The notes beneath the pieces are model-generated. The model had not been told where the DNA came from and did no database searches. It worked only from the letters and a program-made list of their open reading frames with translations. 64,000 bases of DNA. Origin: Candidatus Rokuibacteriota bacterium (lineage in GTDB: Bacteria > Methylomirabilota > Methylomirabilia > Rokubacteriales > CSP1-6). The stretch's first letter is position 1. The number at the start of each line of letters is the position of its first letter. This document shows positions 43,498-50,015 of the stretch, in pieces. The stretch is from the NCBI GenBank assembly GCA_044869815.1, contig JBIOXS010000156.1, positions 3,092-67,091 of the forward strand. Direction: 5' to 3'. A program made the translations under genes and the position numbers.

Positions 43498-44964
43498 ATG
43501 GAAGCCGCTGAGCTCGTTCCGACGGCCGCTCTCGGCGCCACCGAGGAAGAGCAGCGGCCGACCGTGCTCGCCGACGAAGACGAGATCCAGCCGGTCCCCG
43601 AGGAGGCGCTGACCCCACTGCCGGCGAAGGGGGAGGACCCTGTCCGCCTCTATCTCAAGGAGATCGGCAAGGTGCCGCTGCTGACAGCCCAGCAGGAGGT
43701 CCACATCGGTCGCCGGATCGAGGTCGGCCAGATCGCGCTGCGCCGCGCGCTGTCGGGAATTCCATACGCCGTTCGCGCGCTGCTCGAGGTCGGCGACCGC
43801 CTGCGGCACAACGACATCGCCGCCGACGACGTGATTGTGCTGCCCGAGGGCGGTGAGCTCGAGGCCAAGGAGATCCGTCCCGTCGTCCTGGCCTTTGCCC
43901 GCATCCGACGGCTGGAGCGGAAGATCGCGCGGCTGGAGGAGGCGCTCGACGACAAGCGCCGGTCGGCCACCGGCCGGGCCAACGTCCAGAAACACATTCA
44001 GACCTGTCGCGAGGGGATCCAGAAGATCGTCGCCGAGATGCCACTCAAGCCGGCGCTCATCGACGACCTCGTGGCCAAGGTGCGTCGCCTCTGCCAGCGC
44101 ATCGACGCCCTGGCGAGCGAGGCCCGGAAGAACCGCACGGCCGCCGTCACGCGTGAGCTGAAGCAGGCGGAGACCGATGCGGGGCTGCCGCGCAAGCACC
44201 TGGCCGCCCTGCTCAAGGAGATCGAGACGAGCGACCGGACTGTCCGACAGGCGAAGCGGGAGCTGATGGAGGCCAATCTCCGCCTGGTCGTCTCCGTCGC
44301 CAAGCGTTACCTCGGCAGCGACCTGTCTCTGCTCGATCTCGTGCAGGAGGGCAACATCGGTCTGATGAAGGCCGTGGATCGCTTCCAGTACCGTCGCGGG
44401 TTCAAGTTCTCGACGTACGCGACCTGGTGGATCCGACAGGCGATCACGCGCGCCATCGCCGACCACTCGCGCACCATCCGGATCCCGGTGCACATGGTCG
44501 AGACGCTCAACCGCATCTCGCGGGTCAACCGTAACATGATCAACGAGATGGGCCGCGAGCCGACTCCCGAGGAGCTGGCGCAGCGGACGGGCGTCCCGGC
44601 CAAGAAGGTACGGCTGATCCTGGAGTCCTCGCGGAAGCCGCTGTCGCTGGAGACGCCGATCGGCGAAGACTCCGAGCTCGGCGATTTCCTCGAGGACAAG
44701 AGCGCGGGGTCGCCCAACGACTCCCTGCTCAATCAGGACCTCACCACCCAGGTCGAGCGTGCCCTCGCGACGCTGTCGCCGAAGGAGAAGGAGATCCTTC
44801 GTCTGCGGTTCGGTATCGGCGAGGAGGGCGAGCACACCCTGGAAGAGGTCGGCAAGCGCTTCGCGGTCACCCGCGAGCGCATCCGTCAGATCGAGGCCAA
44901 GGCCCTCCGCAAGCTGCGCCACCCGCTGCGAGGGCGCAACCTCAAGGCCTTCATCGAGAATTAG
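43498..44964 (+). CDS. RpoD-like sigma70 factor (regions 1.2, NCR, 2, 3, 4)
   Basis: [59 protein letters not shown]; start ATG 43498 preferred over 43462. Confidence 0.92.
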
Positions 44965-44968
44965 GAGA

Positions 44969-44996
44969 GCGCGGGGGGCGATCGCGGCCCCCGCGC
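44969..44996. terminator. GC-rich hairpin between convergent sigma and CMD genes
   Basis: GCGCGGGGG-N10-CCCCCGCGC, 9-bp stem, no U-tract. Confidence 0.45.
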
Positions 44997-45002
44997 GACG
45001 CG

Positions 45003-45545
45003 CTACCGCACCGCCGCAAACCCCTGCGGCTCGAGCCGGAACGCCTTGGCGAACTTGCTCGCGAAGACCTGGTAGCCGATCACGAACACGAGCTCCACCG
45101 CGTCGGCCTCCGAGAAGTGCTCTCGCACGCCGGCGAAGCAGTCGTCGGAGACCTCGAGATCGTCGCGTACCATCGCCTCGCAGAGAGCCATCGCCGCTCG
45201 CTCCCGCGGGGTGAACCGGTCGCTCTCGCGCCAGCGCGGCAGCGCCTCGAGCGTCTCGGCGTCGATTCCTTCCTTCACGCCGACGGCGTGACGGATGTCC
45301 ATTCAGTACGCGGCGTCGTAGAGGGTGGCCACCTGCAGCTGCAGCAGCGCGCGCAGCCGGCCATCGAGAGCGCCGAAGCGCTCGATCGACGTCCACAGGG
45401 CGCCGATGCCCAGCATCAGTGCCGGCCGGTGGGCCATGAGCTTCTGCGGGGTCGGCACGTCGCCGAAGAGGCGGCGGCCGATGGCGTAGGTGCCGCGAAC
45501 GACGAGCCCCGGATTCTCGACGGGAGCGATGCGATGAGCGTGCAT
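45003..45545 (-). CDS. carboxymuconolactone decarboxylase/AhpD-like protein, probable selenoprotein (Sec at in-frame TGA 45303-45305)
   Basis: One frame: MHAHRIAP...LQVATLYDAAY-TGA-MDIRHAVG...RERAAMAL; TGA sits at the second Cys of the family CxxCxDxH motif; SECIS-like hairpin follows. Confidence 0.75.
45271..45295 (-). promoter_or_regulatory. candidate bacterial SECIS element
   Basis: TCC-G-TCACGCC-GTC-GGCGTGA-A-GGA; the apical loop G lies 18 nt after the UGA. Confidence 0.6.
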
Positions 45546-45592
45546 GAGACCCTCCTCGTTGGTGTGGGTCGCCCCTCCCTTGACTGCCGAGC

Positions 45593-46096
45593 TCATTGCC
45601 GGAGCTGGCCGGTGACCGTCCGATGCCACGTGACGAGCCCGGTGTCCGGCGGTGACCCGCTGACCATCGTCAGCATGGTCGCGATCTCGCTTCGATGATG
45701 ATTGCCGTGGGCGACGACGTGCGTCAAGAGGATGCCGAGCGGCGTGTGATAGGCGTTGCCCGCGGTGTCCTTGTAGTGTATCTCGCGACCGAGGTCCACC
45801 GGCCCCAGGGCCTCCACCCACGCCTGCTGCTCGGTCACCAGCGCGTCCCAGTCCTTGCGCAGCGCGGCCATCGACCCGATGTCCGCGCCCGGCAGCGCGC
45901 TCGTGGAGTATCCCTTCCAGCGCGCCAGCCACAGGGCGTCGGCCCCGTAGACGTGCGCGAACATCCGCCGCAGCGTGGGGAAGCTGAATTGCTGGCCGAT
46001 CTCGCGGCCGCAGGTCTCCTCGCCGAGCGCGCTGGCCACGTCGAACAAGCGGCGGTTCGCCCACCGGTGATACGCGTGGAGCTCGCTGGGGGTCAT
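45593..46096 (-). CDS. DinB/YfiT-like family protein
   Basis: YHRWANRRL, AHVYGAD..WL, HVVAHGNHHRSEIATML His triad. Confidence 0.85.
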   Translation of the reverse strand: MTPSELHAYHRWANRRLFDVASALGEETCGREIGQQFSFPTLRRMFAHVYGADALWLARWKGYSTSALPGADIGSMAALRKDWDALVTEQQAWVEALGPVDLGREIHYKDTAGNAYHTPLGILLTHVVAHGNHHRSEIATMLTMVSGSPPDTGLVTWHRTVTGQLRQ

Positions 46097-46602
46097 GGCT
46101 GCTCCTGACCGCTGCGGATGGCGATGAAGCGCGCGAGCCCCGTCCCGGGCGGCGAGCCGCTCACCATCGTCAGCATCGTGGCGATCTCGCTGCGGTGATG
46201 CGTCCCGTGGTCGGGCACGTGGTGCAGCAGCAGTCCCAGCGGCTGCCGGAACGCCTTGCCGGACAGCAAGCGATAGTTGATGACGCGGTCGACGTCGGCC
46301 TCGCGCAGGCCGTCGAGAAACGTCTTCTGCTCGCGCTCGAGCGTCACCCAGCGCTCGCCCAGCTCGGCGAGCGTGGCCGGCTCGTCGGGGACCGAGGTCG
46401 GGGACACGCCCTGCCAGCGGGCGAGCCAGAGGCCGTCGACGCCGAAGATGTGGAAGAACATCCGCTTGAGTGAGGGCTCGCTGAACTGGGTGCCGATCGG
46501 ATGCGCGGCCTTCGCCTCTCCCAGCTTGGCCGCGGTGTCGAGGAGCGTGCGGTTCGCCCACCAGTGGTGCTCGTACAGCGTCCGAATCGCGGTCAAGCTC
46601 AT
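46093..46602 (-). CDS. DinB/YfiT-like family protein
   Basis: HHWWANRTL, FHIFGVD..WL, HVPDHGTHHRSEIATML. Confidence 0.85.
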   Translation of the reverse strand: MSLTAIRTLYEHHWWANRTLLDTAAKLGEAKAAHPIGTQFSEPSLKRMFFHIFGVDGLWLARWQGVSPTSVPDEPATLAELGERWVTLEREQKTFLDGLREADVDRVINYRLLSGKAFRQPLGLLLHHVPDHGTHHRSEIATMLTMVSGSPPGTGLARFIAIRSGQEQP

Positions 46603-46606
46603 CGCC

Positions 46607-46822
46607 TCACTCCAGCAGGGCGACCGTCTCGCCCTCCTGCACCGTCTGGCCTTCGCGCACGCGGATCTCCTTGACGGCCCCGGCCCGTGGCGCTTCCACC
46701 GGGATCTCCATCTTCATCGATTCCAGCACGATCACCGGATCGCCCGCGGCCACCCTGTCGCCGGGCTTGGCGGTCACCTGAAACACGATGCCGGTGATGT
46801 GCGCCTTGATCTCCTCAGCCAT
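46607..46822 (-). CDS. stand-alone biotin carboxyl carrier (biotin/lipoyl) protein
   Basis: LESMKMEIPV biotinylation motif, 71 aa. Confidence 0.9.
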   Translation of the reverse strand: MAEEIKAHITGIVFQVTAKPGDRVAAGDPVIVLESMKMEIPVEAPRAGAVKEIRVREGQTVQEGETVALLE

Positions 46823-48158
46823 TGAACGCTCCTTGTTCCACCATCTGGGTGTGCACGACGCCGCGGCGAAACTCCGGATGGCCGGCGATCATTCGTAGCA
46901 GCGGCAGCGTGGTCTTCACGCCCTCCACCACGCAGTCATCGAGCGCGCCGGCCAGGCGCTCGAGGGCCTGCGACCGGTCTCGCCCGCTGGCGATGAGCTT
47001 GAAGAGCAGCGGGTCGTAGTGAACGGACACGACGCTGCCCTCGACCACGCCGGACTCGATGCGGAGCCCCTCGCCGCGCGGCAGCGACAGTCGGGTGAGC
47101 GCTCCGGGTGACGGCAGGAAGTTCTTGGCAGGGTCCTCGGCGTACACGCGCACCTCGATGGCGGCGCCGCGCTGGACGATGGCCTCCTGCGGCCACGGCA
47201 GCGGCGCGCCGGCGGCGACGTCGAGCTGGGCGACGACGAGGTCCGCCCCCGTCACCTCTTCCGTCACCGGATGCTCGACCTGTAACCGCGTGTTCATCTC
47301 GAGGAAGTAGAATTTCTCCCCGTCGACGAGGAACTCCAGGGTGCCGGCGTTGACGTAGCCGATCGCCCGCGCCCCGGCCACGGCGGCCTCCGTGAGCCCC
47401 TGCTTGATCTCGGGACGGAGATTCGGCGCCGGCGACTCCTCGACCAGCTTTTGATGCCGGCGCTGGATCGAGCACTCACGCTCGTGCAGGTGCACCACCG
47501 TGCCCTTGGCGTCGCCGAACACCTGCACCTCGACGTGGCGCCCGCGCTCCACGTACCGCTCGACGTAGACCTCCGCCCGGCCGAACGCCGCCTGCGCGCG
47601 CCGTGTCGCGGTCGCCCACGCGCCCGCCAGATCGCTCTCCTGCGCCACCTTCGCCATGCCGATGCCGCCTCCGCCGGCGGCCGCCTTGAGGATCACGGGG
47701 TAGCCGACGTTCGCGGCGCACCGCTGGGCGGCAGCGGCGTCCGCCACCGGCTCCGGACTGCCGGGCACGATCGGCACGCCGGCGGCGGCCATGCGCCGGC
47801 GCGCTTCCGTCTTGTCCCCCATCACCCGGATGGCCTCGGGCGTCGGGCCGATGAACGTCAGCCCCGCCTGCGCGCACGCCTCGGCGAAGCCCCAGTTCTC
47901 GGAGAGGAATCCATAGCCCGGATGGACGGCGTCGGCCTCGCTCTCCCGGGCGGCCGCGATGATGCGCGGGATGTCGAGATAGCTCTCGCGCGCGGGGGCC
48001 GGCCCGATGGCGATCGCGCGGTCCGCGTCCTTGACGTATGGCGCGTCGCGATCGGCCTCGGAATAGACGGCGACGGTCCGAAGCCGGCGCGTCCGGCAGG
48101 CGCGGAAGACGCGGCGTGCGATCTCTCCGCGATTGGCGACGAGCACGGTGCGGAACAC
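46815..48158 (-). CDS. biotin carboxylase (AccC-like)
   Basis: VLVANRGEIA, HPGYGFLSEN, AAGGGG.GM, RECSIQRRHQK, EMNTRLQVEHPVTE. Confidence 0.93.
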   Translation of the reverse strand: MFRTVLVANRGEIARRVFRACRTRRLRTVAVYSEADRDAPYVKDADRAIAIGPAPARESYLDIPRIIAAARESEADAVHPGYGFLSENWGFAEACAQAGLTFIGPTPEAIRVMGDKTEARRRMAAAGVPIVPGSPEPVADAAAAQRCAANVGYPVILKAAAGGGGIGMAKVAQESDLAGAWATATRRAQAAFGRAEVYVERYVERGRHVEVQVFGDAKGTVVHLHERECSIQRRHQKLVEESPAPNLRPEIKQGLTEAAVAGARAIGYVNAGTLEFLVDGEKFYFLEMNTRLQVEHPVTEEVTGADLVVAQLDVAAGAPLPWPQEAIVQRGAAIEVRVYAEDPAKNFLPSPGALTRLSLPRGEGLRIESGVVEGSVVSVHYDPLLFKLIASGRDRSQALERLAGALDDCVVEGVKTTLPLLRMIAGHPEFRRGVVHTQMVEQGAFNG

Positions 48159-48161
48159 GGC

Positions 48162-49151
48162 TCAGAAAGCCGGGCCGACGTCGACCGGCTCGACGCGCAC
48201 CAGGTCGGCGGCGGTGACACGCCAGCCGGCCTTCGACGGCGTCCACCGCAGCTGCAGGTAGCCGATCACGCGCGCGCCCTCGAGCCGCACCTTCACGAGC
48301 CGATGGTGACCGATCGCCGCCAGCGCCACCACGCGCGAGGTGGCGACGTGGTCGCCGAGCCGATCGTGCTCGGCGATCACGCCGGCCCGGGCCGACGGCT
48401 CCACGAGCGCGGAGGCGGCCGCGGTGTCGCCCGACTCGAGCGCATGGCGGTAGGCGTCGACGGCCACCGCCAGGTCGTGCTCGAGCACGGCAGGATCGAA
48501 CTCCGGCGGTACCTCCACGAGATCCTGCTTCACGGCGTGAGGCGACTCGGCCAGGACGGCGGCGTCGATGAGCGGCGCCGGGACGTCGCCCGTCACGCCG
48601 CCCGCTTCGGCGAGCAGCGCCAGCAGCCTCCTCTCCCACACCGTCGCGCGCTCCCGCGCCGTATCGTCACGGCTGAGGCGGGCCAGCACGATGGCGCCGG
48701 CGGCGGCGTGGCGGCGCTCCTCCTCCAGGCAGCGCTCGAGAATTCGCCGGGTCGGCGGCTCGTAGACCGGGTTGGCGTTCCCCAGGTGCCGCGCGTAGAC
48801 GGTGACCATATGCGGCTTGAGCACGCGATAGACACCGGCCACGCGCTCGAGCGTCTCGCGCGGTCCCTCGGCGGACTCGAGGAGATCGGCGAACTTGGCC
48901 ATGCGATCGTTGGCGGGCTCGGACTGCTGGGCGGGCGCCCGCAGCTCCGGCAGCCGCTTGCCCCAGAGGTCGGCGTGCTGCGCGCAGTCCCAGACGTGGC
49001 GGCCGAAGAGGAGCTTGGCGGGCAGCTCGGGCGTCAGCGCGATCCAGCCGCCCAGGGCCCGCAGCATGCGCTCCTCGGCGTAACGGTAGTTGCGGATTCG
49101 CCGCGCGGAGTCGTCGACGGAGAAGTGGCCAGCGAGGCGGTCGGAGCTCAA
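48162..49151 (-). CDS. ferritin-like four-helix-bundle protein with extra C-terminal domain, function unknown
   Basis: YAEERM, RHVWDCAQHA, LEEERRH pattern; TTG start overlapping upstream stop. Confidence 0.55.
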   Translation of the reverse strand: MSSDRLAGHFSVDDSARRIRNYRYAEERMLRALGGWIALTPELPAKLLFGRHVWDCAQHADLWGKRLPELRAPAQQSEPANDRMAKFADLLESAEGPRETLERVAGVYRVLKPHMVTVYARHLGNANPVYEPPTRRILERCLEEERRHAAAGAIVLARLSRDDTARERATVWERRLLALLAEAGGVTGDVPAPLIDAAVLAESPHAVKQDLVEVPPEFDPAVLEHDLAVAVDAYRHALESGDTAAASALVEPSARAGVIAEHDRLGDHVATSRVVALAAIGHHRLVKVRLEGARVIGYLQLRWTPSKAGWRVTAADLVRVEPVDVGPAF

Positions 49152-49903
49152 TACACCTGCGAGCGCTGCGTGCTCTTGATCAGCCGCTCGATCTCCTCGT
49201 CGGTGAAGCCGGCCAGCCGCCGCGCCTCCTTGGCGATGGAGATCGGCACGACGTCGTGCTGGCCGTCCTGGCGGGTGCCGCCGAGATTGAACCGCTCGTC
49301 GATCGTCTCCTGGAACTCGATGGCCTTGCGGCGGCGCTCGGGCTCCCCGCGCGTGAGCTCGTTGAGCCAGCGCGACCCCATGCGCACGTGAGTGATTTCG
49401 TCGGCCAGCACGTAGTCCACGGACTGCTCGACGATCGGATCGCCGATCTTCCCCGCGATGTGGATGAGCTGGTTGAAGACGTCGCACGCCAGGCCTTCCA
49501 GGCCGCGGTTGACGCCGGCCACGCGCGCGGCGGCGTCCTCGGCGCACGCGCAGCGCCAGAGAATCGTCGTCTCCGGGAACTCGCCGAGCCGACCGCCGAG
49601 ATGCTCGAGGAGGCCGAGATAGGTCTCCACGTGGCGCGACTCGTCCCACACCTGCCGCGCCATGTCCAGGGTGAACTCCCACGGCGCATCGGGGAAGTCG
49701 CAGACCGTCCGGCCGGCGCCCTCCATCGCCTGGAGCTCGCCGACGAGGATCCCGTGCACGCGCTCACGCATCGACTCGCGGCTCGACAGATCCGGGAATG
49801 GCGGGAGACCCTGGGCGACTTTCAGCTCGGCGACGTCGCGCGCGCGCATGCGGATGAAGCGGTCCTCCCGGGCAAGCTTGTCGTAAGCGATCGGCCGTTC
49901 CAT
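49148..49903 (-). CDS. DUF455-like ferritin/diiron protein
   Basis: HGILVGELQAME, RQVWDESRH, LEGLA.D, LADEITHV (E...DExRH...E...DExxH); GGAAGGAG RBS. Confidence 0.75.
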   Translation of the reverse strand: MERPIAYDKLAREDRFIRMRARDVAELKVAQGLPPFPDLSSRESMRERVHGILVGELQAMEGAGRTVCDFPDAPWEFTLDMARQVWDESRHVETYLGLLEHLGGRLGEFPETTILWRCACAEDAAARVAGVNRGLEGLACDVFNQLIHIAGKIGDPIVEQSVDYVLADEITHVRMGSRWLNELTRGEPERRRKAIEFQETIDERFNLGGTRQDGQHDVVPISIAKEARRLAGFTDEEIERLIKSTQRSQVY

Positions 49904-49940
49904 CGGGATCTCCTTCCGGACTGAACCGCTATTCAGCGCG

Positions 49941-49949
49941 AGTGTAGCA
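49941..49949 (-). promoter_or_regulatory. candidate extended -10 promoter of the ferritin-like operon
   Basis: TG-C-TACACT; CTGAA-N6-TTCAG dyad at 49921-49936 just downstream. Confidence 0.4.
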
Positions 49950-49981
49950 CGCCGACGGAACCACGAACCACCCAGGACAGC

Positions 49982-50003
49982 CCACCCACGGCTCGAGCCG
50001 CAC
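49982..50003. repeat. 22-bp inverted repeat, left copy
   Basis: CCACCCACGGCTCGAGCCGCAC; exact reverse complement at 54176-54197. Confidence 0.85.
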
Positions 50004-50015
50004 ACAGCCCCGTCG

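Follow-up and report, generated by a model that had tools for sequence, protein, structure and literature searches.

The window analysed here, a 64,000-nucleotide (nt) stretch of contig JBIOXS010000156.1 (positions 3,092 to 67,091), comes from a soil Rokubacteria (Methylomirabilota) genome, GCA_044869815.1, a metagenome-assembled genome (MAG) of 190 contigs that is ~80% complete. On its minus strand, from 45545 to 45003, two open reading frames (ORFs) abut in the same frame as LYDAAY-TGA-ATG, just as an earlier note on this DNA had reported. We find that the two ORFs are one gene for a redox protein of the AhpD/CMD type, and comparison with related sequences makes it very probable that this is a real selenoprotein gene, with its active-site UGA read as selenocysteine (Sec, U). 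The features of the locus are listed below, one per line.

45003..45545, minus strand: complete gene for a predicted CMD/AhpD-like selenoprotein, with Met1 at 45545..45543, Sec81, and the stop codon TAG at 45005..45003.
45550..45557, minus strand: GAGGAGGG, which resembles a Shine-Dalgarno sequence and is separated by 4 nt from the ATG at 45545; read from the sequence.
45306..45545, minus strand: N-terminal 80 codons, which gene callers treat as a separate short ORF or drop.
45303..45305, minus strand: UGA codon of residue 81 (predicted Sec), at the column of the second Cys in the CxxC redox motif.
45003..45302, minus strand: C-terminal 99 codons, an ORF of their own in the ORF list, with the ATG directly after the UGA as start.
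45271..45295, minus strand: hairpin within the coding sequence resembling a selenocysteine insertion sequence (SECIS), from the fold and the comparison across orthologues.
45312..45314, minus strand: Ala78 codon (U-3), at the vicinal Cys position of CxxU and CxxC relatives.
45138..45140, minus strand: Cys136 codon, a clade-specific Cys near the start of helix 134-141 and a candidate resolving residue.

Read from the ATG at 45545, the frame runs MHAHRIAPVE...LYDAAY, reaches the TGA, and continues as ATG GAC ATC CGT CAC (MDIRHAVGV...). Translation with TGA as U turns the minus strand from 45545 to 45003 into a single gene of 180 codons. The N-terminal part appears in the mechanical ORF list as the tail of a longer open frame.

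The read-through protein matches the CMD family PF02627 in Pfam with 38.1 bits (cut-off, 23), and the family profile matches PA0269 (E = 9e-28), Atu0492, Bmp8, and D. radiodurans AhpD. AlphaFold2, run on the read-through sequence with Cys for Sec and an alignment of 36 rows, returns a single all-helical domain (predicted local distance difference test [pLDDT], 93.5; predicted TM-score [pTM], 0.88), in which residue 81 lies two residues into helix 79-91. Foldseek aligns this model to 6k40, 2prr, 3c1l, and 6ohi with TMq values of 0.84-0.89 over ~180 columns. As judged from the predicted structure, neither half would be a domain alone, and the product would be one protein, not two.

To place the gene among its relatives, which are Candidatus Methylomirabilota or Rokuibacteriota MAGs, 60 of these were searched in six frames. 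The search recovers 23 orthologues of 56-85% identity, each with exactly one internal TGA, bar one in which the terminal TAG was counted. Twenty of them were read in detail, and column counts out of 20 refer to these. In all 20, the TGA stands at the same column, within LY[DGRA][AVSM][AP]Y-TGA-[MV]DIR[HR]AVG, and the orthologues are collinear on both sides of it, over residues 1-178. When the search was widened to 251 genomes from the phylum at a threshold of E <= 1e-40, the orthologue was found in 61, as a single copy in each, and another family within the same class was reached. Each of the 61 orthologues carries the in-frame TGA (the terminal stop being included in the count for a few), and none has Cys, TAA, or TAG at the site. 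The two halves, whose separate occurrence the earlier note had named as part of a refutation, are adjacent, in frame, and joined by TGA in 61/61 genomes.

At the three codon positions, nucleotide differences amount to 0.28/0.18/0.47 before the TGA and to 0.22/0.22/0.42 after it, and the third-position excess in both halves means that both are translated in this frame. Hundreds of metagenomic fragments also carry this TGA. Neither the 251 phylum genomes nor, above ~40% identity, the 1.84 billion representative proteins contain a form of the clade with Cys at the site. All matches in this representative library with >50% identity are halves (residues 3-80 or 82-178), calls translated with W, or frameshifted artefacts. 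The nearest full-length proteins in the library are 34-39% identical, and the eight that were read are all CxxC proteins (GCxFC[I/L/M]D and similar).

These data bear directly on the idea that the gene is a pseudogene or an assembly error, in which a nonsense mutation or a miscalled base would have changed a former Cys codon. The TGA is indeed one base from TGC or TGT, and the MAG is fragmented (190 contigs, 80% complete). However, the TGA recurs in 61 independently assembled genomes from several families and in the hundreds of metagenomic fragments, both halves keep a coding substitution pattern, and there is no Cys orthologue among the phylum genomes or the representatives. On this comparative evidence, the idea is effectively refuted, and we assign it a negligible probability.

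Downstream of the UGA, the RNA folds as UCC-G-UCACGCC-GUC-GGCGUGA-A-GGA, that is, 7 bp (UCACGCC/GGCGUGA) above a 3-bp lower stem (UCC/GGA). The fold confirms the 7+3-bp hairpin with a G-first loop, 18 nt downstream, that had been described from inspection. The core stem pairs CACGCC (45290..45285) with GGCGUG (45281..45276) around the loop GUC (45284..45282). These core 6 bp are common to the orthologues, in which they enclose a GUN loop; the U-A pair and the 3-bp lower stem are limited to the source genome. The loop G lies 18 nt after the UGA, and the 7-bp stem-loop has a folding energy of -9.9 kcal/mol. The published bacterial SECIS model (PMC13188914) specifies a loop of 3-9 nt, >=4 bp, a G in the first two loop positions, a spacing of 16-37 nt, and an energy of <= -7.5 kcal/mol, all of which the hairpin satisfies with its 7 bp, GUC loop, spacing of 18 nt, and -9.9 kcal/mol. 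The expectation that a bacterial SECIS element would follow the UGA at about this distance is thus borne out by the model. An Rfam scan of 44000-47000 gave nothing relevant, and the 74-nt stretch folds no better than its shuffles (z = 0.45). We regard such a hairpin in a single sequence as weak evidence; the signal comes from the comparison across genomes.

The 30-nt stretch that follows the UGA hardly varies among the 20 orthologues (TGA ATG GAC ATC CGN CAC GCC GTN GGC GTG). RNAalifold recovers the 6-bp stem CACGCC/GGCGUG, with 120/120 cells paired. In one orthologue, CAC is changed to CGC and GTG to GCG (His to Arg and Val to Ala), which replaces an A-U pair by G-C and restores the pairing, and the stem of another orthologue contains a G-U pair. 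Synonymous diversity is the lowest in the gene for the 10-codon window from the UGA (0.17 vs 0.43 upstream and 0.36 downstream). Zero synonymous variation is seen in 3 of the 32 conserved four-fold codon columns, namely, Ala87 (GCC), Gly89 (GGC), and Val90 (GTG), and all three are in the stem. The 28 four-fold columns outside the hairpin region have a mean synonymous variation of 0.53, none being at zero, and the loop codon Val88 has a value of 0.54. Within what sequence comparison can tell, we take this confinement of silent-site constraint to the four-fold codons of the stem as the decisive test for a recoding signal.

The earlier note had proposed looking for the Sec machinery, and tRNA-Sec, SelA, the C-terminal part of SelB, and SelD are all found in the source genome. 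The tRNA-Sec scores 69.7 bits against an Rfam cut-off of 47 and is called by ARAGORN as tRNA-SeC with anticodon tca; SelA (518 bits) is encoded on the same contig. SelB is recognised via its winged-helix domain 3 (65 bits), the C-terminal 411 amino acids (aa) lying at a contig start. SelD matches TIGR00476 with 337 bits, contains one in-frame TGA, and is probably itself a selenoprotein; its gene (C156:80508-81458, minus strand) lies ~13 kb past the window end. Among 1,959 long ORFs of the source genome with high third-position GC content (GC3), 1256 terminate with TGA, which is the commonest stop, while TAG and TAA together end 36%. As the main terminator of this genome, TGA is therefore not reassigned. 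Methylomirabilota are already known to be rich in Sec; one MAG of the phylum, with 63 predicted selenoprotein genes, is described in a 2026 review (PMC13188914).

Several observations weigh against Sec at this site. In this genome of 70% GC, 15% of 4000 random TGA sites pass the SECIS model by chance, and at 7% the hairpin equals or exceeds the present one in stability. Covariation within the orthogroup amounts to a single compensatory event, and 55 of 500 shuffles match the observed value; this control is low in power because five of the six pairs never vary. The GTPase domain of SelB lies beyond a contig end, in a genome that is ~80% complete. Finally, the codon after the UGA is ATG (18) or GTG (2) in 20/20 orthologues, which is compatible with re-initiation.

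The hairpins of paralogous genes speak to the first of these points. In each of the 14 paralogous Sec-CMD genes examined, a hairpin that satisfies the SECIS model lies 18-21 nt beyond the UGA; these hairpins are built from at least six unrelated stem sequences and closed by the loops GUC, GUG, GUU, GGA, GGUCU, CGUG, and CGGG. At a 15% chance per sequence, 14 of 14 is not a chance result.

Re-initiation is the only serious rival to Sec. It holds that the TGA is a true stop, that translation restarts by coupling at the adjacent ATG or GTG, and that the two products, 80 and 99 aa long, come together as a single CMD fold that lacks residue 81. A potential start in every orthologue read is what this model needs, and gene callers do call the downstream ORF. 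However, the downstream ATG is preceded by GACGCCGCGTACTGAATG, which has no purine-rich stretch comparable to GAGGAGGG, and thus by no Shine-Dalgarno-like sequence. The stop is TGA in 61/61 orthologues though TAG and TAA end 36% of genes, and it coincides exactly with the catalytic Cys column. Paralogues in the same genomes with the classical CxxU motif (INGCPF-U-IDIN, NGCEF-U-QDIN, NGCEY-U-TRAH, and VGCGY-U-SDLN) have I, Q, S, or T codons after the UGA, which are unable to start translation, so that a restart is ruled out for the wider family. As Cys relatives have I, L, M, V, or C after that column, the M or V found here is the family's hydrophobic residue. Downstream of the TGA lies a conserved hairpin in which synonymous change is suppressed, and in the predicted structure a break at the TGA would divide one compact domain two residues into its active-site helix. 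We consider a split gene extremely unlikely.

The column of residue 81 also shows the alternation between Cys and TGA that had been suggested as a check. It holds U in the CxxU paralogues and Cys in the CxxC and SxxC homologues and in relatives from the PDB (PA0269). Homologues without TGA have Cys at this column (HCLSC; SSYCMLAHG), bar one pair with Gly or Ser, and a CxxC homologue of the same order (L037) likewise aligns its Cys to U81.

The UGA could in principle be read through without Sec, by near-cognate insertion of Trp or Cys or by reassignment of TGA as in codes 4 and 25. Translations of some orthologues by JGI and other pipelines (P0002, P0003, and P0195) do place W at the TGA. Yet TGA is the main terminator in the source genome, whose Sec pathway is complete, and the codon stands at the redox Cys column, the classical site of Sec/Cys exchange. 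A hairpin of the SECIS type lies at the canonical distance both here and in 14/14 paralogues, and Trp at the catalytic Cys site would inactivate the protein. Read-through by an amino acid other than Sec is accordingly very unlikely.

With Sec as the preferred reading of UGA81, the protein can be compared with known selenoproteins. The metagenomes of the Sargasso Sea and of Global Ocean Sampling (GOS) had already led to predicted AhpD-like and CMD-like selenoproteins (PMC1088965, PMC2398784), which have been known since 2005; that Sec-containing AhpD-like families exist, as the earlier note had stated, is documented there and in PMC13188914. Table 1 of the latter lists AhpD-like 1 (COG2128/TIGR01926), AhpD-like 2/CMD-like (PF02627), NF041047, and NF041238, with CxxU as the motif throughout. 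The present clade shares with these catalogued families the fold superfamily, Sec at the second position of CxxC, a SECIS hairpin in the coding sequence, and split gene calls. It differs at U-3, which is Cys in their CxxU motif and A, V, or S in 20/20 members of this clade. Under the rule of the 2026 review that a different Sec-related motif marks a distinct subfamily (PMC13188914), the [A/V/S]xxU motif therefore defines an uncatalogued one. This is not a new kind of selenoprotein; its novelty lies in combining a lone-Sec site, [A/V/S]xxU throughout the clade, with the clade-specific Cys136.

The best NCBIfam match is NF053654 ('GroundWater_YciW' YciW-related (seleno)protein), at E = 1e-28 over residues 34-175. 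This family, too, is a CMD family with Sec and comes from organisms of the same kind. Its cut-off is 310 bits; one type of paralogue found in the same order (NGCEFU-QDIN, L053) scores 309.6, the lone-Sec protein 100.3, and its orthologue L033 111.3. The score for TIGR01926 is 17 bits against a cut-off of 81.8, the cut-off of TIGR04169 is likewise missed, and TIGR00778 (ahpD_dom) gives no match at E <= 0.1; no NCBIfam model scanned claims the lone-Sec clade. In the phylogenetic tree, the lone-Sec group forms one clade (99/99), separate from NF053654, on a long stem that arises from a polytomy with the CxxU and CxxC clades. Rokubacteria-type Methylomirabilota show a large expansion of CMD genes with Sec, to which this gene belongs as a single-copy, stand-alone member.

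Cys-containing relatives of known structure include PA0269 of P. aeruginosa (2ijc, 2o4d, and 7xw1), Atu0492 of A. tumefaciens (2gmy), D. radiodurans AhpD (6k40), and the 'peroxidase-related' structures 2prr, 3c1l, and 2oyo. Profile matches to the AhpD-like structures range from E = 1e-27 to 1e-18 and TMq values from 0.71 to 0.89, and U81 aligns to the second Cys of the NGCAYC motif of PA0269. In contrast to their CxxC, with His at C+4 in PA0269, the present protein has AxxU with His at U+5, and identity is only 16-26%. The difference from canonical AhpD of the M. tuberculosis type is similar, CxxCxxxH there against AxxUxxxxH here, and Foldseek gives M. tuberculosis AhpD (1gu9, 1lw1) a TMq of only 0.52-0.56, with E > 1. 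Thus, the earlier assignment of the protein as CMD/AhpD-like stands, but the CxxCxDxH given there for such proteins does not apply: the spacing is changed, with His at U+5, and two of the 20 orthologues have Arg instead.

A closer parallel for the active site is the lone-Cys 'peroxidase-related enzyme' of the TIGR01926 type (SSYCMLAHG), three of which are found in the same order (L044, L045, and L047). These share the single chalcogen nucleophile, with Ser at -3, but use Cys rather than Sec, lack Cys136, and belong to a distant clade (branch of 2.16 substitutions per site). Given such SxxC forms in the same order, a one-nucleophile site is not unprecedented in the superfamily.

Residue 78 of the protein is Ala, as had been noticed from the sequence (AxxU). 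The U-3 column is occupied by A, V, or S in 20/20 orthologues; in 16 other homologues it is C in 13 and S in 3. Conversely, position 136 is C in 19/20 orthologues, and Cys136 is present in 104 of the 117 metagenomic fragments in which the motif was found, whereas L, D, E, A, or T occupies the position in 16/16 other homologues.

Together, these features suggest how the protein might work. SelB and Sec-tRNA would bind the hairpin 18 nt downstream and insert Sec at UGA81. By inference from the family, Sec81, at the N-terminus of the active-site helix, would be the redox nucleophile and would react with peroxide, a disulfide, or a similar oxidised substrate. Because the vicinal Cys is replaced by Ala, Val, or Ser, a CxxU selenenylsulfide cannot resolve the oxidised selenium, and another thiol must. 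This recycling step could fall to Cys136 or to a reductant from outside the protein, such as thioredoxin or a low-molecular-weight thiol, much as in 1-Cys and atypical 2-Cys peroxiredoxins. The analogy to those enzymes and to Sec-peroxiredoxin (PxxxTxxU) would lie in a lone Sec or Cys that is resolved by a distant Cys or an external thiol; the folds, thioredoxin and all-helical CMD, are unrelated.

We tentatively propose, as a possibility with the odds against it, that the clade is a distinct, obligately Sec-dependent CMD subfamily, restricted within this sample to one Methylomirabilota class, in which Sec81 and a relocated resolving Cys136 would run a 1-Sec/atypical-2-Cys-like cycle that is undescribed for AhpD-like proteins. 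Less likely still is a bolder version, in which the lone selenol would perform deiodinase-like reductive chemistry on a small molecule rather than peroxide reduction. This idea stems from the presence of the debrominase Bmp8 among the closest structures, which is a structural resemblance only.

Three points count against the mechanism and function proposed here. Cys136 is replaced by Thr in one orthologue, His86 (U+5) is Arg in 2/20, and, outside the two closest genomes, no neighbouring gene recurs across the other 17 loci, nor does any point to a substrate. The codon change at His86 belongs to the compensatory change in the stem, from which it follows that this His is dispensable and that the canonical CxxCxxxH site is not preserved. 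The proposal of Cys136 as the resolving residue rests on one evolutionary event. As CMD proteins are oligomeric, Cys136 may act at the active site of an adjacent subunit.

The clade is a natural experiment on the role of Sec once the partner Cys is gone, and the lack of a Cys-containing counterpart suggests that sulfur cannot do the job in this active-site context. With it, the selenoproteome of Rokubacteria/Methylomirabilota, already very large, would gain a subfamily. No principle of Sec decoding is changed, and with AhpD-like selenoproteins long known the value is incremental.

The practical consequence is for annotation. That standard annotation would split the gene proved correct, as databases hold C-terminal pieces from MDIRH, N-terminal pieces of ~80 aa, and some W calls. 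The window's own 99-aa call (P0004) is one of >100 database proteins that start at MDIRH or MDVRH, and the N-terminal entries of ~80 aa end in ...LYDVAY (P0122). Three entries from JGI/ENA (P0002, P0003, and P0195) are full length only through TGA as Trp (…PYWMDIRHAVG…), presumably under code 4/25, and carry the wrong active-site residue. An ENA entry of 128 aa from a 605-nt contig (P0006) joins orthologue residues ~1-50 directly to ~101-178; it lacks the entire Sec/SECIS region, through either a genuine deletion or a chimeric assembly. P0156, a candidate for a protein spanning the site, was rejected as a frameshifted junk call. Public databases contain only halves or versions with W at the UGA, where a single selenoprotein gene ought to be annotated. 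Hundreds of soil-metagenome entries, now ~100-aa 'alkylhydroperoxidase family enzyme' fragments, would be repaired by a family model for the lone-Sec clade.

The source genome encodes two more Sec-CMD paralogues, INGCPF-U-IDIN and NACVH-U-SLARS, with compliant hairpins 20-21 nt after the UGA, and one Cys-form CMD paralogue, NGCEYC.

C90:9057-9590 (L034), C177:21962-22411, and C186:9308-9586: CMD paralogues of the source genome, two Sec forms and one Cys form.

The 60 relatives (G001-G060) show a large CMD expansion in the order, with up to 8 matches listed per genome, nearly all with one in-frame TGA, and with several subfamilies that differ in motifs and SECIS stems. Two full-length CMD homologues lack the TGA and have Gly (GGC) at the Sec/Cys column (GCPFGTDIG; L035, G005:C60) or Ser, with the Cys shifted by one position (GCPCSMDVG; L036, G004:C518); these may be decayed or re-wired active sites. 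Three further matches without TGA (G056:C51:6712-6873, G037:C147:3597-3815, and G019:C188:7518-7739) cover only the C-terminal 55-75 residues at 45-76% identity and may be gene remnants or contig-edge fragments.

A scan of 44900-45700 for promoters and terminators found nothing. The selenoprotein gene ends at 45003 and its convergent neighbour, an rpoD-like sigma-factor gene, at 44964. The 38-nt gap between them contains a GC-rich inverted repeat, GCGCGGGGG...GATC...CCCCCGCGC (44969-44996), which the terminator scan does not call because it has no T-run.

On the other side, the gene is the last in a same-strand run (45593-50005, minus strand) that includes a DUF455 (ferritin-like) gene, a 506-aa frame without a Pfam match, a biotin carboxylase, a 71-aa biotinyl-carrier protein, and two DinB-family genes. 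Only the two closest genomes have DinB, biotinyl-carrier, and biotin carboxylase genes adjoining the orthologue, and a function based on the operon was rejected, as the neighbours are not conserved beyond these two. The two DinB-family paralogues, arranged in tandem upstream of the selenoprotein gene, are ~50% identical to each other.

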